64,000 nucleotides of DNA from an uncultured Alphaproteobacteria bacterium (GCA_963848595.1 CAWKEH010000007.1:53231-117230); one strand, 5' to 3'; shown: positions 17,214-28,847, counted from the stretch's first letter. The notes: a model not told the origin generated them from the letters alone. A program made the numbers and translations.

Positions 17214-17726
17214 CTAGCCTGGTTCACCCCGTCGCACCTTGTTGAGCACGCGCTCCAAGGTGAGCGGCGGCACGAAGGACGACACGTCCCCGCCCAGCCG
17301 CGCAATCTCCTTGACGAGGCTCGACGAGATGAACTGGTGGCGCTCGCTGGCCATCAGGAACACGATCTCGATCTCCGGGTCGAGGCGGTAGTTCATGCCC
17401 GCCATCTGGAACTCGTAGTCGAAGTCCGTCACCGCGCGCAGGCCGCGGATGATGACCTGCGCGCCCGCTTGCCGCGCGAACTGGACGAGCAAGCCCTGGA
17501 AGCTCACGACCTCGATCGCGGTGCCCGTGCGCCGGGCGATGAGGTCCGCCTCGGCGCGGACGAGCTCGACGCGCTCGTCGAGCGTGAACAGCGGTCCCTT
17601 GCCCACGCTCTCGGCGACGCCGATGACGAGCCGGTCGAGCACGCGCGCCGCGCGGCCGATGATGTCGATGTGCCCGTTCGTGATCGGATCGAACGTGCCG
17701 GGATAGACGCCGGCGCGCTCAGGCAT
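17214..17726 (-). CDS. coaD: phosphopantetheine adenylyltransferase
   Basis: [18 protein letters not shown] nucleotidyltransferase signature, ~170 aa, and an 8-nt overlap with the gyrA stop. Confidence 0.93.
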
Positions 17727-20481
17727 CGTCGCTCTCGGGGGGGGTCTCGGGAACGATCTCCGGGACGCCCTCGCCGTCCGGGTCCACCACGAGCGACACG
17801 GTGGTCACGTGCTCGCCCTCGCCGACCCGGAACAGCATCACGCCCTGGCTCGCCCGGCCCGTGACGCGCACCTGGTCCACGGGCACGCGGATCAGGCGCC
17901 CGGCATCGGTCACGAGCATCACGTCGTCGCCGTCGCGGACCGGGAAGCTCGCCACGACGGCGGCGCCGTTGCCGTTGCGCGCGGCGAGCAGGATGTTGGT
18001 GATCCCCTGCCCGCCCCGGCCCGTCACGCGATAGTCGTAGGCCGACGACCGCTTGCCCAAGCCGCCGCTGGTCACGGTGAGCAGGATCTCCTCCTGCTCC
18101 GCCAGCTCCGCGACCCGCTCGGGCGGGAGCGTTATGTCGGCGACCTGCTCCCCCAGCTCCTCGGCCTCCGCAGCCACCTCGGCAGCGGGCTCGACGGAGG
18201 CCTCCTCCTCCACCCGGCGCCGGGCCTGGCGCAGGAAGGCGGCGCGCTCCTCCGTGGTGGCGTCCACGTGGCGCAGGATGGAGAGGCTGATCACCTCGTC
18301 CCTGCGTCCCAGCCGGATGCCGCGCACGCCCGAGCTGTCGCGCCCGCTGAACACGCGGAGTGCGTCGCTGGTCGCCTGGAACCGGATCGCCCGGCCCAGC
18401 TTTGTGGCGAGCAGCACGTCGTCGCCCTCGCGGCAGGTCGCGACGCCAATGAGGCGGTCGCCCTCATCAAGCTTCATGGCGATGAGGCCAGAGGCGCGCA
18501 CGTTGCGGAAGTCGGAGAGCTTGTTGCGCCGCACGCCGCCGCTCGTCGTCGCGAAGACGAGGTGCAGCCCCTCCCACAGCGTCTCGTCCTGGGGCAAGGG
18601 CAGCACGGCCGTCACCTCGTCGCCGCCCAGCTCCGGCAGCAGGTTCACGAGCGCCCGGCCCTTCGCCGCCGGGCTGGCCTCGGGCAGGCGCCAGACCTTC
18701 TCGCGATACGCCTTGCCGCCGCTGCTGAAGAACAGGACCCACTGGTGCGTGTGCGCGTTGAAGCTGCGCGTCACCACGTCGTCCCCGCGCGTCGTCGCCG
18801 CACTCCGGCCGCGGCCGCCGCGGTTCTGGGCGCGGAACACGTCGAGCGGCGTCCGCTTGATGAAGCCGTCGCGGGTGATGGTCACGACCATCTGGCCCGG
18901 CTCGATCAAACTCTCCTCGTCCTGGTCGGCGACCGCGTCCACGATCTGGGTGAGGCGCGGCGAGGCCAGCTCGGCGCGGACAGCCAGCATCTCGTCGCGC
19001 ATCACCTCCAGCCGCCGCGGGCGGCTCGCGAGGATGGCGAGCAGCTCCTCGATGCGCGCCGCGACCTCGGCCATCTCGGCCTGAATCTTCTCGCGTTCCA
19101 GCCCGGTGAGGCGTTGCAGGCGCAGGTCCAGGATGCCGCGGGCCTGGGTATCGGTGAGGCGCACGCGGCCGTCCACGACCTGGTTGCCGGTATCGGCCAC
19201 GAGCGCCAGCAGCGGCGCCACGTCGGCGACCGGCCAATCCCGCGCGAGCAGCGCCACCCGCGCCGTAGCCGCATCGGCGCTCGCGCGGATCAGCGCAATC
19301 ACCTCGTCGATGTTCGCGACCGCCAGCGCCAGGCCGATGAGCAGGTGTGCCCGGTCCCGCGCCTTCCCCAGCTCGAAGCGGCTGCGCCGGAGGATCACGT
19401 CCTCGCGGAAGGCGATGAAGCACTGCAGCGCGTCCTTGAGGCCCATCAGGCGCGGCCGCCCCTGGTCGAGCGCCAGCATGTTCACGCTGAATCCGGTCTG
19501 CAGCTGCGTGAAGCGATAGAGCTGGTTGAGCACCACCTCCGGCGTCGCGTCGCGCTTCAGCTCGATCACGATGCGCATGCCGTCGCGGTCGCTCTCGTCG
19601 CGGATGTCGGAGATGCCCTCGACCTGCTTGGCGCGCACCAGCTCGGCGATGCGCTCCTGCAGCGTCGCCTTGTTCACCTGATAGGGGATCTCGGTGACGA
19701 CGATGGCGTCGCGGTCGCGCCTGATCTCCTCGATGCTCGCCTTCGCGCGGAGGATGACGCTCCCGCGCCCGGTCTCGAAGGCGCTGCGGATGCCGGCCCG
19801 GCCCAGGATCAGCCCGCCCGTCGGGAAATCGGGGCCGGGGACGATCTGCATGAGCTGGTCGAGCGAGACGCCGGGCTCGGCGATGATCGCGAGCGTGGCG
19901 TCTATGATCTCGGTCGGGTTATGGGTCGGGATGTTGGTCGCCATGCCCACGGCGATGCCGTTGGCGCCGTTGATCAGCAGGTTCGGGTAGGCGGCGGGCA
20001 GGACACGCGGCTCCTCCGCGCTGTCGTCGTAGTTCGGCCCGAAATCCACCGTGTCCTTGTCGATGTCCGCGAGCAGGTGGGTGCTGGCGCGGGCGAGGCG
20101 GACCTCGGTGTAGCGCATGGCCGCGGGCGGGTCGCCGTCCACGGAGCCGAAATTGCCCTGGCCGTCGATGAGCGGCACGCGCATGGAGAAGGACTGCGCC
20201 ATGCGCACGAGCGCGTCATAGATCGAGGCGTCGCCATGGGGGTGATACTTGCCCATCACGTCGCCGACGACGCGCGCCGACTTGCGGTGCGGCTTGTCCG
20301 CCGTGTAGCCGCTCTCCTGCATGGCGTAGAGGATGCGCCGATGGACGGGCTTGAGCCCGTCGCGGGCGTCCGGCAGCGCGCGGCTGACGATGACGCTCAT
20401 TGCGTAGTCGAGGTAGGAGCGCCGCATCTCCTCCTCGAGCATCACGGGGGGTGATGCCGGCGTCTCTGTGGTATCACTCAC
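17719..20481 (-). CDS. gyrA: DNA gyrase subunit A
   Basis: 920-aa ORF with the N-terminal [27 protein letters not shown], the active-site region AAMRYTE, and C-terminal beta-pinwheel repeats. Confidence 0.96.
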
Positions 20482-20534
20482 GATCAGTCTGCCTAGTCCT
20501 GCCTGCTTATGGTCCTACCGAACGGCTAACCCGT

Positions 20535-20640
20535 TCCATCACGCCCGGCCTGGTACCGGGCATCCATGTCTCCGAGATGGAGGAACATACCCTGACGCGG
20601 AGCGCCGAATCTGGCCTCCGCCACGGCATCTTACATGGTG
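20535..20640. repeat. short GC-rich intergenic repeat (family translating as PGLVPGIH)
   Basis: cacgcccggcctggtaccgggcatccatgtc resembles, in inverted orientation, gtcatgcccggactcgatccgagcctccacgac at 31190..31310. Confidence 0.5.
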
Positions 20641-20869
20641 TCTCAACCTTCCGGAACCAACCTAGGCTGTCACAGTCGCTGTGCTCAGAACTGATTTGGG
20701 CATAACCGAGAAAGAGGGTCGAGGACGGCCGAGCCTTCGCCATCACGTGTTCTGATCAAGCTGGTTGCAGATTGCTGTACAAGCCTTTCAGCCGCTTTCC
20801 CCGCAGAATTTCCAATGGGGAGACGTGAATTCTCGTTGACAAGACCGGCATCCCAAGGCAAATTGTAGA

Positions 20870-20897
20870 CCGCCCCGCCAAAGATATGGCGGGGCGG
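20870..20897. repeat. GC-rich hairpin left of the DndB-like cassette
   Basis: ccgccccgcc-aaagatat-ggcggggcgg is a perfect 10-bp stem. It shares the GGCGGGGC/GCCCCGCC core with the hairpin at 22654..22691. Confidence 0.7.
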
Positions 20898-20964
20898 CCC
20901 TGAAACCACGGACGGGTATGTCCTGGAAAGCCTTCCTGTCCGCAGCCATTGAGGGATATGATGA

Positions 20965-22269
20965 GTGCTTCCAGCTCGATCAAGCTGCCTATCACCTGCA
21001 TCCGCGGGCATTCGGGCCCGCATATGCAATCGTTCCAGACAGTTTGCCTTCCAAGCCAGCTTCTCTCGGTACCTTGGCCACGACCCGCGGCCGAGCAACT
21101 GGCGCAACCTGCCATCGACCCTTCGCCAGGCGTACGAGGAATATCAGCGCAAGACGAAACTTGCTCGTGCCGAGAGTATCAGCAAGTATATTCGCGAGCG
21201 GCTCTCGCCCAATGCAGTCCCTGAACATGTCGGCGGCTTTCCAAGCCTGAGCATCGGTGTTACCGACGTACCCGTCTTCGAACCGCTCCGCCAGCGTGCG
21301 GGCGTGACAATTGCGGATGGTGTTCCTTTGGACGATTCCGTTGGAACACTTTACCTCGACGTTGGCGCGAAGCACGTCCGCATGTTGCTCGACGGTCTGG
21401 CTCGGTACACAGGCGCCATGGAGTTGGTCGATGCGGGCGAGGATGTTGATGACTGGTTCTCGTTCGCGCTGACGATTTACGCCCCGACGGCCTCCCGAGG
21501 CTCTCTCAACCTGCGGACGTTGTCCCAACTCTTCTTCGACTTCAACTATCGCGTGACGCGCGTGCCGCCATCCCTAGCGCTCGCACTGGATCAAGCTGGG
21601 GTATACTCGCAGATTGTAGAGTGGCTGAAGGATCAGCCCGTCATCACAGACAATGGGGGTATGCAGCAATCAGGCGCTAGCCTCGGGACGAAGTCCACCG
21701 CCTTCGTCGTGCGCCGCGTCCTACATGGGTTCGTCACGATCGCTGCCGAAGGCGAGAAGGCGCTCAACAAGGGTTCGAAGAACCAGGACATCCGCAACCC
21801 GCGAACCACGCAAGAGAACATGTGGAACACTGCGGAGAAGATCCGCGACTTCCTCTCCCGCTTCGCGACCGCTATGGGAAATCGTTTCGTGGAGACCGAC
21901 AGCATTCACCTGACCCGGCTCGGATGGGAAGCAATCGGCATGATCGTGCACGATGCCGTCATCCGTGCCGATATGTCGGAGGCCGACCTCGACCGCTGCG
22001 TCGCTGCGCTGGCAGCAATCGATTGGTCGCGGACCAACCGCGACTGGTTCGGAATGATTGGCATCGCGGAGCAGGATGAGCAGGGTAATCCGATCCTCGA
22101 CGCGAACGGTCGCGAGCGTGTCGTCATTACTGGTGGCAAGGGTGACCAGGGCTTGCGGCGTGCGATCAGTTACTTGCGCCGGAAGACAGGCGTGCGCCGG
22201 GCGTCGAAGAGCGAAATCGCCGCATTCGGCGATGAGGAGCAGCAGGACTTGCTTGAGGAGGTTGCGTAA
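20965..22269 (+). CDS. DndB / DGQHR-domain-like (ParB/Srx fold) protein with degenerate DGLAR motif
   Basis: 434-aa ORF in a visibly less GC-rich segment. The order of motifs mirrors the DndB/DGQHR family: QRKTKLARAESISKYI, FPSLSIGV, MLLDGLARY where DGQHR normally sits, then SQLFFDFNYRVTRVPPSLALALD where the Q-F-D-N / S-L-D block sits. Confidence 0.6.
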   Translation: MLPARSSCLSPASAGIRARICNRSRQFAFQASFSRYLGHDPRPSNWRNLPSTLRQAYEEYQRKTKLARAESISKYIRERLSPNAVPEHVGGFPSLSIGVTDVPVFEPLRQRAGVTIADGVPLDDSVGTLYLDVGAKHVRMLLDGLARYTGAMELVDAGEDVDDWFSFALTIYAPTASRGSLNLRTLSQLFFDFNYRVTRVPPSLALALDQAGVYSQIVEWLKDQPVITDNGGMQQSGASLGTKSTAFVVRRVLHGFVTIAAEGEKALNKGSKNQDIRNPRTTQENMWNTAEKIRDFLSRFATAMGNRFVETDSIHLTRLGWEAIGMIVHDAVIRADMSEADLDRCVAALAAIDWSRTNRDWFGMIGIAEQDEQGNPILDANGRERVVITGGKGDQGLRRAISYLRRKTGVRRASKSEIAAFGDEEQQDLLEEVA

Positions 22270-22649
22270 TGACGTTCACCGGAGGAACGCTCCCTGGACC
22301 TCACGCGGGAGATATGTCGCCGCTCACCGCAGCCCTGAGACCGAAAATCCGTTTGGAACCCGCACAACGGGCGCAAGCGCGGCGGTTGCGTAAGAAGGGT
22401 TGGGAGATTGTACGGATAGCTGCACGGCTGGGTGCCCCAGTCGAGGAGGTCGAGCTTGCGCTCACCACGATCCGCACCCTTAACCCGTCGCCCACGCGAA
22501 AGTCCTTAAACGGCACCGTGGAGGCTCACGCGTTCGTCTTGGGCGAAGCCGAGCACGGCGAGGCGATATGGCAGACGATAGATCGCCTCTTTGCTGAACT
22601 CGCCTTCCGCCGCGCTGCTGCGGGCGCGCCTATAAGCCGGCCGAGGTGA
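22269..22649 (+). CDS. small helix-turn-helix protein coupled to the DndB-like gene
   Basis: 126-aa ORF whose start overlaps the upstream stop (TAATG). It has an HTH-like segment, AQARRLRKKGWEIVRIAARLGAPVEEVELAL. Confidence 0.55.
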   Translation: MTFTGGTLPGPHAGDMSPLTAALRPKIRLEPAQRAQARRLRKKGWEIVRIAARLGAPVEEVELALTTIRTLNPSPTRKSLNGTVEAHAFVLGEAEHGEAIWQTIDRLFAELAFRRAAAGAPISRPR

Positions 22650-22653
22650 AGTC

Positions 22654-22691
22654 GGTTTGGCGGGGCTCGCACGATGCAGCCCCGCCAACCG
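22654..22691. terminator. hairpin right of the cassette (terminator-like, no T tract)
   Basis: ttggcggggc-tcgcacgatgca-gccccgccaa is a perfect 10-bp stem lying 5 nt after the HTH gene stop. Confidence 0.55.
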
Positions 22692-22786
22692 AAACCGGCC
22701 AGGGTTCCTTTCGCAGACCGTTGCCTTTTACAGAAGTTCGTACTTCACGTCAGTTGCCATGCGAGCGCAACCATCTCGTTTCGACT

Positions 22787-22870
22787 TAAAACGGTATCTC
22801 GTCGTCCAGGTCGCTGCCGCCGCTCGGCGCCTCCCACGACGGGCCGCCACGATCGCCGCCATCGCCCGCG
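22787..22870 (-). pseudogene. 3'-terminal fragment of an ssb gene
   Basis: The minus strand reads ...[20 protein letters not shown]-stop. 58 of 66 nt are identical to the 3' end of the intact ssb at 25337..25402. Confidence 0.75.
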
Positions 22871-22918
22871 GCGCCCGATGCACGCACGACCCCCCGACGC
22901 ACGCGGGGACGGACGCGC

Positions 22919-23302
22919 CTACGCCACCTCCCGAAGCTTGGCCCGCGCCGCCTCGGTCAGGAAGCGCGAGCAATTCGTGGTCGCCCGGTCTATGGCGTCG
23001 AGCACATCCTGGGGAAGCATCACGTTGACCCGCACGGCGGGAGCCGGCTTAGCGGGCACATCCACCAGGAAGGCCACGGCCTCGCGGTTCTCGGGCGTGG
23101 CCATCACCGCGTCCAGGCCGGACGGCTCCGGGACCGCCTCGCCGTCCTCCATGCCCTCGACGTGCAGCGCCAGCGGCTCAGCCGCCATGCGGCGCGCCTC
23201 GTCCAGCGTCCGGCCCGCGGTCACGCAACCAGGGAAATCGGGGAAGTCCACCCCGTAGTCGCTCGCCCCGTCCTTGCGCAGCAGCGCGATGTAAGCGGTC
23301 AT
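22919..23302 (-). CDS. hicB: HicB-family antitoxin (no adjacent hicA)
   Basis: 127 aa. The N-terminus is YIALLRKDGASDYGVDFPDFPGCVTAGRTLDEA (HicB fold) and the C-terminus is RHH-like, VNVMLPQDVLDAIDRA. Confidence 0.8.
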   Translation of the reverse strand: MTAYIALLRKDGASDYGVDFPDFPGCVTAGRTLDEARRMAAEPLALHVEGMEDGEAVPEPSGLDAVMATPENREAVAFLVDVPAKPAPAVRVNVMLPQDVLDAIDRATTNCSRFLTEAARAKLREVA

Positions 23303-23457
23303 AGTCTCGGCCCTCTCAACTCAACCGTCTAGTATGCCGGATCAGAAGTTCGTCGGCCCTTGCCGGCGTGCCTCTGATCGGTCGGCATGCTGAAAACAAA
23401 GAGTCTAGTGGCTCGAAATCGGAGTTCGCCAGCATGGCGAACTTCGAATTCGGGACA

Positions 23458-23775
23458 CTAGGCCGCTGCCTGCGCCGCCGCGACCGCCTCCGCGACCGCC
23501 TCCGGGCTGCGCGCGATTACCAGCAGCAGCGTGCGCGCGGCTGGATCGGGGCGGCGCAGCCCCTGCTCCCAGTCGCGCACCGCCGCGACCGCGAGGCCGA
23601 ACCGCTCTGCGAACGCCGGGCGGCTCAAGCCCATCCGCTCCCGTGTGGCGCGCACGTCCACCGCGCCGGGCGGCAGGTGCACGCGCGCCGGCTCCATCTC
23701 GCCGCGCAGGATGGCGGCGGCTTCCTGCATGGAGGCGATCAGCTCGCTGGTGATGTCGGTCGGCTCGGTTGCCAT
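23458..23775 (-). CDS. XRE-family HTH antitoxin (HigA-like)
   Basis: 105 aa with an HTH (GLSRPAFAERFGLAVAAVRDWEQGLRRPDPAARTLL). It lies immediately downstream of the RelE/HigB-like toxin. Confidence 0.8.
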   Translation of the reverse strand: MATEPTDITSELIASMQEAAAILRGEMEPARVHLPPGAVDVRATRERMGLSRPAFAERFGLAVAAVRDWEQGLRRPDPAARTLLLVIARSPEAVAEAVAAAQAAA

Positions 23776-23779
23776 CGCT

Positions 23780-24118
23780 TTATCTCCTTTGCTGCGCGGC
23801 CGCCTTGAACTCGGCCACGACCGCCGCCATCGCCCGCGTCTGCTCCGGCGTCGGATTCACCAGTTCATTCTTGCCGTAGATCAATAAGGCGAGGATCGGC
23901 ATCGCTTCGTCGAACACGTAGTAGATCACGCGGAATGCACCGCGCTTGCCGCGCCCCTCCGGGGCGAAGCGCAGCTTCCGCACGCCGCCGGTGCCGGGGA
24001 TCACGTCGCCCGCGAGGGGATCGCTCGCCAGCACTGTGACCAAGTCCGCCCGGTCCTCGCGAGAGAGCAGAGCGTCCGCTCGCCGGGAGAAGATCGGCGT
24101 CTCGAGGACCGCGTGCAT
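23780..24118 (-). CDS. RelE/HigB-like type II toxin
   Basis: The GDVIPGTGGVRKLRFAPEGRGKRGAFRVIYYV...YGKNE signature, with the toxin gene upstream of the antitoxin (hig-type order). The start is taken at MHAVLETPIF. Confidence 0.8.
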   Translation of the reverse strand: MHAVLETPIFSRRADALLSREDRADLVTVLASDPLAGDVIPGTGGVRKLRFAPEGRGKRGAFRVIYYVFDEAMPILALLIYGKNELVNPTPEQTRAMAAVVAEFKAAAQQRR

Positions 24119-24175
24119 CTCCGCTCCTATACAGCACTGCTGTATTTCCTTCAATTACGAAATACCGCGCGAGCA

Positions 24176-24470
24176 TCAGGGGAGCATCCCCTCCAACTCC
24201 CTCATACTCTCCCTGATCTCGTCCTCCAGCCTCACCAACTCCGCCAAGATCTTCCGCGGCGCGCGGTGCACGACCTCCTCCCGCGCCGCTTCCTTGTAGC
24301 GGTTCAGCGACAAATCCCACCCGGCCGCCGCGATCTCCGCCTTCGGCACGACGAAGCTCCGCGCCGTGCGCGGCCTCTCCCGCTCCGCCTCGTCGCGCTG
24401 CGCTTAGCGCGCCAGCACGTCCGGTAGCTTGTTCTTGGCGTGCTCGGCCTCGTCTAGCGCCTCGCTCGAA
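24176..24470 (-). pseudogene. C-terminal remnant of a type I restriction-modification methyltransferase (HsdM)
   Basis: The minus-strand frame reads ...SFVVPKAEIAAAGWDLSLNRYKEAAREEVVHRAPRKILAELVRLEDEIRESMRELEGMLP-stop, a typical HsdM tail. There is an in-frame TAA at 24404..24406 and no methylase core upstream. Confidence 0.6.
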
Positions 24471-24594
24471 CCCCCCATCGCGCTCGCACGAGCAGAAACC
24501 CAACCGTGGCAATCGCGTCACAGCGCGCGCTCACGGCCCGACGCGATCACGCAGCACTTGACGCCCCTGGGCCACAAACCCCCAATTCGCCCCC

Positions 24595-25302
24595 ATGTCC
24601 TCCACCCCCGCCCTCCTCGACCCAGCCGACCGCGCCCGCCAGCGCGACGAGGACGCGCAATACTACCGCCAGGTCCTGCACAAGTTCATCGCCATGGGCA
24701 CCGACCTCGCCGAGGCCGTCCACCGCCAAGCCCTGGCAGAACCCGCCGCCGCCGCCCAAAGCGCTCCCCAGACCCAGCCCGAGGACGAGCCCGCAGCACC
24801 CAGCCCCAGCCCGAGCCAAGCGATCACCTTCGACTGCCTCGCCCGCACCGTCCGCCGCACCATCGCGCTTGCCCGCAAGCTCTCCGAGCCCGCCCGCGAG
24901 GCGCCCAGCCCGAAGCTCCACCTGAAGGAGTGCCCAAATGAGCGCCGCACGGACCGCGCCGAGACAGCCGCCCTCCATGCCGAGCCGTGGGCCGAGCCGT
25001 GCGAGCGCCCCGAGGGAGCCGATTGCGACGCCGACGAGGACCTTGACGACGACCTCGACGAGCAGTCACTCGCCGACCTCATCGCGAGCCTGCGCCACGA
25101 CACCGGTCTCGCCACCCTGACCGACGCCGAGCTCCGGCAGCATCCCACGCCCCCAAAGGCGCAAGGAAGCGCATACGAGGGCGTCCCAAGCGAGAGGTGC
25201 GACCGCTGCGCCCGGACCTCCAGAGCAAGCACACGAGCAGGGAGCACTGACCACCCCGACTCGGCACCGTCACGCCCCGGCACCGGCCCGCCGGACCCCT
25301 GA
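24595..25302 (+). CDS. hypothetical acidic protein
   Basis: 235-aa ORF with plausible coding character (helical N-terminus, a low-complexity linker, and a DADEDLDDDLDEQSLADL acidic patch). The antisense ORF is Ser/Arg-rich junk. Confidence 0.45.
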   Translation: MSSTPALLDPADRARQRDEDAQYYRQVLHKFIAMGTDLAEAVHRQALAEPAAAAQSAPQTQPEDEPAAPSPSPSQAITFDCLARTVRRTIALARKLSEPAREAPSPKLHLKECPNERRTDRAETAALHAEPWAEPCERPEGADCDADEDLDDDLDEQSLADLIASLRHDTGLATLTDAELRQHPTPPKAQGSAYEGVPSERCDRCARTSRASTRAGSTDHPDSAPSRPGTGPPDP

Positions 25303-25336
25303 TCCGGGTCCCCGGCCGCGAAAAATCTCCCGAACC

Positions 25337-25852
25337 TTAGAACGGTATCTCGTCGTCCAGATCGCTGCCGCCGCCCGGCGCATCCCAGGACGGAGCGCCA
25401 CCGCGCCCGGCGCCGGCCGGCGCCCGCTCGCGCGGGGCGGAGGGGCGCGACTGGAAGCCGCCGCCCTCGCCACCGAAGCTGCCCGCGCCCTCGCTGTCGC
25501 GGTTGCTGTCGAGCAAGGTCAGCTCGCCGCGGAAGCGGTCAATCACCACCTCCGTCGTGTATTTCTCCTGGCCCTGCTGGTCGGTCCACTTCCGGGTCTG
25601 CAAGCTGCCCTCGACATAGACCTTGCGGCCCTTGCGCAGGAACCGCTCCGCCACGTCCGCCAGCCGCTCGTTGAAGATGACGACCTTGTGCCACTCCGTG
25701 CGCTCCTTGCGCTCGCCGGAGGCCTTGTCGTTCCACGTGTCGCTCGTGGCGAGCGTCAGGTTCACCACCTTGCCGCCGTTCTGCATAGTGCGGCTCTCCG
25801 GGTCCTTGCCCAGATTGCCCACCAGGATCACCTTGTTCACCGAACCAGCCAT
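25337..25852 (-). CDS. ssb: single-stranded DNA-binding protein
   Basis: The N-terminus is [19 protein letters not shown], followed by an OB fold, a Gly-rich linker and the acidic tip DLDDEIPF. It is divergent from uvrA. Confidence 0.95.

Positions 25853-26000: not shown

Positions 26001-28847
<2,847 letters not shown>

Follow-up and report, generated by a model that had tools for sequence, protein, structure and literature searches.

How a second copy of the 3' end of the chromosomal ssb gene came to lie some 2.5 kb away from the intact gene is the question raised by the region between gyrA and uvrA in an uncultured Acetobacteraceae bacterium. The region was analysed within a window, the whole stretch of 64,000 nucleotides (GCA_963848595.1 CAWKEH010000007.1:53231-117230) to which all coordinates without a contig name refer; the corresponding metagenome-assembled genome (MAG), designated G000, is 77% complete and has a 3.87-Mb assembly. 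A reading of the sequence alone had taken the repeat as the likely integration scar of a decayed genomic island. Our analysis leads to a different explanation: the fragment is probably the cut-off end of a chromosomal ssb, a scar of homology-facilitated illegitimate recombination between two haplotypes of a variable ssb-gyrA locus.

A repeat search of the window revealed a direct repeat of 66 nt with 89% identity, 22785-22850 versus 25336-25401, in the same orientation and with a spacing of 2551. The ssb-derived portion comprises 65 nt, 22786-22850 matching 25337-25401, and corresponds to the last 21 ssb codons and the stop codon. The repeat noticed in the sequence-only reading is thus real, while the fragment had been placed at 22787..22852, off by one base. 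That the fragment still codes for the protein end was confirmed: on the minus strand it stays in frame through its own stop codon (22786-22788), like the tail of the intact gene (stop codon 25337-25339). Even when up to 3 mismatches were tolerated, the 20-mer AACGGTATCTCGTCGTCCAG had exactly two sites in the window (0 expected from shuffles), and a third ssb tail beside these two was not present in the 3.87-Mb assembly. Directly after the stop codon the flanking sequences of the two tails diverge completely, and nucleotide similarity between fragment and resident ssb outside the 66 nt was not significant (P ~0.33 against GC-matched genome segments). The two copies are as follows.

22786..22850, minus strand: orphaned 3' end of a chromosomal-type ssb, 21 codons and stop, 89% identical to 25337-25401.
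25337..25852, minus strand: intact chromosomal ssb, PF00436 with E 6e-37, OB-fold part 98% identical to that of the congener MAG G001.

Over the 65 ssb-derived nucleotides the tails are separated by 7 substitutions and no indels, and five of the seven substitutions fall on third codon positions (binomial P = 0.045). Compared with the ssb tail of a congener-level relative (L177, described below), the resident tail differs at 5 of 66 positions and the fragment at 9. Because the substitutions are mostly at third positions and frame and stop codon are intact, the pattern points to two functional alleles from different lineages rather than to a duplicate decaying neutrally in situ. The fragment has a tail of the chromosomal type, PSW(D/E)AP...DLDDEIPF, and resembles the chromosomal ssb tails of other genera, e.g., with 91.5% identity over 59 nt to locus L087; the second ssb copies of the family that were checked (L054, L057) are without the PSW(D/E)AP motif. 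Pfam matches, the OB-fold domain among them, were absent from the fragment and its upstream frame, in contrast to the intact gene. An exact-protein look-up of the ssb product returned no record. A longer ssb homology of about 95 nt had been hinted at by a Gly-rich frame and by blastn matches to the tails of other genera that reached 22875-22881; it was ruled out by L177, where 22846-22918 corresponds to the spacer between hicB and an antitoxin gene.

The position of the fragment can be understood from a 122-kb metagenomic contig (L168) with the gene order gyrA, a DndB-like gene, ORF126, 73 nt, intact ssb and uvrA. The matching parts of the window are the two core anchors and the block adjoining the fragment on its left.

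17719..20481, minus strand: gyrA, left core anchor of the variable locus, a 920-aa ORF with a GC content at third codon positions (GC3) uniformly of 0.88-1.0, nucleotide identity 92% to L177 and 77% to L168.
20482..20669, no strand assigned: native gyrA upstream region; the 92% alignment to L177 starts inside gyrA and ends at 20669, the stop codon of hsdR in L177.
20870..22691, plus strand: low-GC two-gene cassette of DndB type with flanking hairpins, DndB-like gene 20965-22269 (PF14072, E 3.5e-14) and ORF126 22269-22649, GC 0.60.
22692..22785, minus strand: spacer from the cassette hairpin to the ssb fragment; shares CCATCTC with the sequence downstream of ssb in L168 at a near-equal distance from the stop codon.
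26001..28847, plus strand: uvrA, right core anchor, by ORF and start codon; 94% identical to G001, 89% to L177 and 81% to L168.

The variable region has its left edge at ~20645-20672. Between window and L168 the nucleotide identity is 77% for gyrA, 69% for the cassette (window 20873-22624; L168 5913-7657), 76% for ssb and 81% for uvrA. From the stop codon of ORF126 it is 73 nt to the ssb stop codon in L168 and 136 nt to the stop codon of the fragment in G000; a second ssb tail was not found in L168. With gyrA and a complete ssb enclosing the same cassette in this relative, the fragment lies where the 3' end of a chromosomal ssb belongs. The spacer 22692..22785 was probably the 3' flank once belonging to the truncated ssb, as weak, positional evidence suggests; apart from the heptamer CCATCTC common to L168, the downstream flank of the fragment had no homology to the ssb-gyrA spacers of relatives. 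L168 is also a relative with the flank and without the bracketed segment, a point in support of the sequence-only reading.

That reading had offered as its alternative the relic of a second, element-borne ssb; the element could be a plasmid, an integrative and conjugative element (ICE) or a phage, and the 5' part of the gene would have been deleted. Some genomes of the family do have second ssb genes, ssb is frequent on mobile elements, and the adjoining cassette is plasmid or ICE cargo elsewhere. Yet the fragment is placed relative to the cassette as the chromosomal ssb end is in L168, it has the chromosomal PSWEAP-type tail that the divergent second copies do not have, and at the cassette loci in plasmid context no ssb tail was detected. 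With the orthologous position and the tail type both against it, an element-borne origin is very unlikely. The cassette itself was found on metagenomic contigs (L169-L176) mostly in plasmid- or ICE-like settings, with genes for ParA, an RPA replication protein, a type IV secretion system coupling protein, a Xer-like integrase, DarTG or a type I restriction-modification (R-M) system with two integrases. Chromosomal placement between gyrA and ssb was seen in G000 and L168 only, and the cassette was not found in 300 genomes of the family, including the congeners G001 and G002.

To the right of the fragment, the window holds a set of genes that had been read as hicB, a higBA-type pair, an hsdM remnant and a hypothetical gene. 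This content was verified.

22846..23326, minus strand: hicB segment (hicB 22919-23302 with 73 nt downstream and 24 nt upstream), 91% nucleotide identity to L177 7482-7964; HicB_lk_antitox PF15919, E 5e-26.
23458..23838, minus strand: HTH (MqsA/HigA-like) antitoxin 23458-23775 with 61 nt upstream, matches to HTH_3 and MqsA_antitoxin; 92% nucleotide identity to L177 7940-8318, 91% to G001.
23780..24154, minus strand: RelE/HigB-like toxin candidate of 124 aa, weak match to PF06296 (E 0.008).
24167..24468, minus strand: 3' remnant of hsdM (type I methyltransferase), 85% identical to the hsdM 3' end of L177 and 88% to a G001 gene with N6_Mtase and HsdM_N.
24525..25321, plus strand: copy of a dispersed repeat of ~0.75 kb with a 235-aa ORF (ORF235, 24595-25302), no Pfam or PHROG match; its junction with ssb is common to G001.

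The description of this segment as TA-rich holds for toxin-antitoxin (TA) genes and not for the base composition, which with a GC of 0.70 is genome-like (window 0.69); the block that looks foreign is the one to its left, 20670-22785, with a GC of 0.60. The alignment with a hicB paralogue at C5:70686-71079 extends through the stop codon of hicB.

The closest homologue of the antitoxin, with 91% amino acid identity, led to L177. This congener-level sequence is 92.4% identical to the window across gyrA and its upstream region to 20669 and 88.9% across ssb-uvrA. It has the order ssb, MPAB-like gene, hsdM, hicB, antitoxin, hsdS, hsdR and gyrA, i.e., an intact type I R-M/TA island, to which the window is 91% identical at 22846-23326, 92% at 23458-23838 and 85% at 24167-24468. 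In the ssb-gyrA interval of L177, neither an integrase nor a repeat of the ssb tail is present. Relative to L177, G000 is without hsdS, hsdR and most of hsdM, and the low-GC cassette and the ssb tail are in their place. The 2.5 kb between the repeats are thus not a discrete integrative element, and the notion of a decayed island bounded by the repeat fails on a relative that carries the island intact beside ssb with no ssb repeat.

G001 is ~91% identical to G000, and the two share the unit ORF235-ssb-uvrA, hsdM (near-complete in G001) and the antitoxin. They have suffered independent deletions: in G001 the interior of the toxin gene is precisely gone, in G000 1.45 kb of hsdM. An integrase was not encoded in the 5.6 kb of island available from G001. 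The island is, by these comparisons, old in the genus and decays independently in each lineage, because its parts have diverged from G001 as much as the neighbouring core genes, at the 88-91% level. The slot between hsdM and the antitoxin varies in the three congener-level genomes: it holds the RelE-like toxin in G000 (23776-24166), the interior-deleted toxin in G001 (L035:3060-3090) and hicB in L177 (L177:7384-8000). As island markers, hicB homologues yielded only scattered TA genes, none of them adjoining an ssb tail.

The seam between the ssb fragment and the island could be resolved by comparison of three sequences.

22846..22850, no strand assigned: junction microhomology GCCAC, from the three-way comparison of fragment, resident ssb (25392-25410) and island spacer (L177; window copy 23809-23843).

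On the plus strand, the fragment reads GGGCC-GCCAC-GATCGCCGCCATCGCCCGCGG, the resident ssb GGAGC-GCCAC-CGCGCCC, and the island spacer, in L177 and at 23809-23843 of the window, ACTCG-GCCAC-GACCGCCGCCATCGCCCGCG. To the left of GCCAC the sequence is that of ssb, from GCCAC rightwards that of the spacer between hicB and the antitoxin. The breakpoint is a microhomology of 5 nt, GCCAC, common to both parents. Around this single breakpoint both parental sequences are traceable, the one in the resident and other ssb tails, the other in the L177 spacer and the window copy at 23814-23838. At the seam, the middle of the hicB-antitoxin spacer meets ssb at a position 63-65 nt ahead of the stop codon. Since the operon of L177 runs on past this spacer into antitoxin, hsdS, hsdR and gyrA, the island-side breakpoint is the middle of an R-M operon and not the terminus of an element. 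A spacer piece of 25 nt is present twice in G000, at 22846-22870 and 23814-23838 (96% identity), and once in L177; two copies of the island spacer thus contributed to the arrangement in G000.

Two rival explanations have to be measured against this anatomy. Had a 2551-bp unit that reaches from the hicB spacer into the ssb tail been duplicated in tandem in situ, and had its left copy then undergone deletion and neutral decay, a junction of ssb tail and hicB spacer would be expected, and the spacer piece would be present twice, as it is. However, the copies diverge fully after the stop codon, where one is followed by ORF235 and the other by a different 3' flank and the cassette; the third-position-biased differences are those expected between functional alleles, and the setting of the left copy equals the haplotype of L168. 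A duplication of this kind is highly improbable. Alternatively, the assembly may have joined sequences of co-occurring strains or species with the two haplotypes into a chimera within a long-read metagenome bin. The incompleteness of the MAG is compatible with such an artefact, the close relatives including G001 are 'MFD09603' bins from a single sample, and frameshifts of the long-read-consensus type occur in the ssb genes of several related MAGs. Against it, assemblers change the haplotype inside long shared sequences and not at a microhomology of 5 nt, the join would need two different positions of one locus in correct orientation, and the duplicated 25-nt spacer piece together with the independent internal deletions suits a biological history. 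We consider a chimeric assembly quite unlikely.

The observed frameshifts lie between the OB-fold and the DDEIPF tail of ssb (L035:5640-5760 in G001, L110, L112, L131) and are probably long-read consensus errors in the GC-rich Gly linker, so that indels in these MAGs need caution.

Classical site-specific integration was the explanation favoured in the sequence-only reading. In this scenario an integrase-bearing island with a 66-nt mimic of the ssb 3' end entered at ssb, the repeats represent attL and attR, and the integrase was later deleted with other genes. The repeat indeed comprises exactly the last 21 codons and the stop codon, ends 1 nt past the stop and includes a perfect block of 20 nt; TA and R-M genes form the cargo, and with L168 a locus without the bracketed segment exists. 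A regenerated target gene with a displaced fragment is well known for tDNA islands (Islander database, PMC4383910), and dusA-specific integrases (PMC4482086) belong to the same class of integrase-mediated islands. G000 shares with these islands the intact target on one side of an accessory segment and, on the other side, a same-orientation copy of its 3' end that ends at the gene end. It differs from them in lacking an integrase, in a boundary within an operon spacer and in a 5-nt microhomology in place of an identical att core; moreover, the same island adjoins ssb in L177 without a repeat, and ssb does not recur as a target in ~300 related genomes.

The absence of an integrase from the segment, reported already in the sequence-only reading, extends to the entire window, in which no tyrosine or serine recombinase (PF00589, PF00239) was detected; the nearest one is 180 kb away. 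As noted, the 5.6 kb of G001 and the intact island of L177 have none either. A recombinase associated with ssb-end repeats had been suggested as a search target. The assembly has no ssb tail beyond the two in the window, and tblastn of the eight tyrosine recombinases of the genome against ~95 ssb loci gave no match. A scan for DLDD(E/D)IPF followed by a stop codon in 301 genomes of the family identified a nearby tail pair only in G000; all other doubles were distant second ssb genes or non-SSB proteins, and no duplicate of the ssb tail was found at the ~95 ssb loci besides that of G000. The gap between ssb and gyrA measures 40-860 bp in many genera of the family and 1-9 kb in others. In a first check, six of twelve genera had enlarged gaps, none with tail repeats. 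The cargo of the longer gaps consists of ordinary genes (AMP-binding enzymes, phosphotransferase system components, cold-shock proteins, an AcrB pump), and integrase, TA or R-M genes were not among their top families. Because other tail duplicates and integrase matches are missing at the ssb loci of the family, the ssb end is not a recurrent attachment site in Acetobacteraceae. In a text search of the literature that combined 'end of ssb' with integrase or genomic island, no paper contained the phrase. What stands of the earlier interpretation is that DNA was joined into a chromosomal ssb 3' end; the junction, a 5-nt microhomology in the middle of an operon that has lost hsdS and hsdR, speaks against a site-specific reaction, and integration by an integrase is unlikely.

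The survey of ssb loci also brought up two full uvrA-ssb copies on the same strand of one contig, 141 kb apart (L069 and L070; G285:C19:29808-37834 and 170807-178833), a segmental duplication or an assembly artefact.

Recombination between two haplotypes, which we regard as the probable origin of the fragment, would have proceeded as follows. Haplotype H1, intact in L177 and partly preserved in G001, has the type I R-M operon with embedded TA genes downstream of ssb; haplotype H2, represented by L168, has the DndB-like cassette directly downstream of ssb. The left half of the G000 locus corresponds to H2, with the region upstream of gyrA, the cassette, the 3' flank of ssb and its last 21 codons, and the right half to H1, with hicB, antitoxin, toxin, hsdM remnant, ORF235 repeat, full ssb and uvrA. 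DNA of one haplotype would have entered a cell of the other. One end may have recombined homologously in a flanking core gene, either gyrA or ssb/uvrA, and the other would have been joined illegitimately at GCCAC, with no need for an integrase. The cell would have survived since a full ssb copy, supplied by either the incoming or the resident DNA, remained. For a homologous crossover in the flanking gyrA or ssb-uvrA, the identity and GC3 profiles show no step.

Homology-facilitated illegitimate recombination, in which a one-sided homologous anchor is combined with a join at a microhomology, occurs in the natural transformation of Acinetobacter baylyi and Streptococcus pneumoniae. The locus of G000 resembles these cases in the gain and loss of DNA between conserved genes, in the join at a microhomology of a few bases, in one end that would lie in homologous core sequence and in the dispensability of a recombinase gene. 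Unlike them, it was not observed as an event but is deduced from the comparative anatomy of an uncultured MAG.

We slightly favour as incoming DNA a block of cassette and ssb tail that replaced the hsdS-hsdR end of a resident island, because the island is present in the congeners and the cassette was not found there, and because the GC content of the cassette is 9 points lower. Several points weigh against the recombination of two haplotypes or its direction. The reverse transfer, of island DNA with its own ssb into a cassette-bearing genome, fits the anatomy equally well. L168 is a relative at the family level only (uvrA 81%, cassette 69%), and a pure H2 haplotype is not known at congener level. 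The contig of G001 ends 2.7 kb to the left of the antitoxin, short of the junction, and leaves the distal end of the island out of view. The gene order hsdM-toxin-antitoxin-hicB in G000 versus hsdM-hicB-antitoxin in L177 requires at least one further rearrangement of the island. A microhomology of 5 nt in DNA of 70% GC is modest evidence alone, the third-position bias has just 7 substitutions behind it, and the MAG, probably assembled from long reads, is 77% complete.

Most likely the fragment itself has no function. Its intact frame and stop codon would also be accounted for by a retained function: the junction may have created a chimeric mini-ORF just downstream of hicB, of ~33-40 aa, starting at an in-frame GTG in the former hicB-antitoxin spacer and giving a free SSB C-terminal-tip peptide that is kept as a decoy and titrates SSB-interacting proteins. 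We regard such a decoy as scarcely probable. In other Acetobacteraceae genomes, prophage-type non-SSB proteins end in the SSB tip ...DLDD(E/D)IPF. Their loci are:

L058:4004-4816, minus strand: non-SSB protein with SSB tip.
L060:3248-4024, plus strand: non-SSB protein with SSB tip.
L062:4004-4549, minus strand: non-SSB protein with SSB tip.
L063:3473-4024, plus strand: non-SSB protein with SSB tip.
L066:3623-4024, plus strand: non-SSB protein with SSB tip.
L067:4004-4549, minus strand: non-SSB protein with SSB tip.

Several of them match phage families of unknown function (phrog_3634, phrog_21613, phrog_2698), with weak matches to DUF669 and phrog_378. They may be mimics of the SSB tip or non-canonical phage SSBs, and tip mimicry may be a strategy in use in the family.

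The ORF235 repeat between the hsdM remnant and ssb belongs to a dispersed family of ~0.75-kb repeats with ~20 full and ~12 partial copies in the genome, 78-94% identical and each with unique flanks; many more are present in the congeners. Examples besides the window copy are C8:61949-62686, C6:26584-27330, C6:590090-590824 and C7:506864-507586, with ~25 more. Each copy has a promoter-like sequence, CTTGACC-N17-TTTATCCT, and an ORF of 216-267 aa, mostly intact, that ends in PGTGPPxP. The right-hand neighbour is a convergent gene in 15 of 20 copies, in ten of them at a distance of 16-135 nt. The family is limited to Acetobacteraceae MAGs and has no match to a transposase, Pfam or PHROG family; in the AF2 model two N-terminal helices are followed by disorder (pLDDT 63). 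A role of ORF235 as a hidden recombinase was rejected on the missing family match and on this model of a helical N-terminus and disorder. ORF235 was likewise dismissed as a marker of islands with flank repeats, as a bridging repeat exists only at the window copy and at C6:211500-212291. The latter copy has a direct repeat of 163-203 nt with 82-83% identity, whose arms lie ~1 kb ahead of the element and immediately behind it. A stretch of 1270 bp, 100% identical and inverted between C6 ~22049-23318 and C7 ~187043-188312, is probably an insertion sequence; two different ORF235 copies are a few kb away from it. Two by-catches may outrank the scar in interest: the ORF-bearing repeat of ~30 copies, placed closely downstream of convergent genes, and the phage-type proteins with an SSB-tip tail.

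The feature, an orphan gene end from illegitimate recombination at a variable locus, is of an ordinary kind. Annotations should label the fragment a pseudogene remnant and recombination scar and not an att site, and should not present the 2.5-kb segment as an integrative island. Duplication of a target gene's 3' end is by itself not diagnostic of integrase activity. The locus is similar to defence hotspots flanked by core genes, in which type I R-M systems have embedded TA or abortive-infection genes: the cargo between ssb and gyrA differs by relative (DndB cassette, R-M and TA genes, ordinary genes), the edges are fixed, one at the ssb stop codon and the other ~188 nt upstream of gyrA, and hsdM and the antitoxin have a toxin gene, no gene or hicB between them. 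In contrast to such hotspots, the interval holds metabolic genes or nothing in most other genera of the family, and it is a defence site only in this genus-level group. With both parental haplotypes present in environmental relatives and the breakpoint located to 5 nt, the locus offers a natural example of defence cargo beside essential genes that is reshuffled without a dedicated recombinase.

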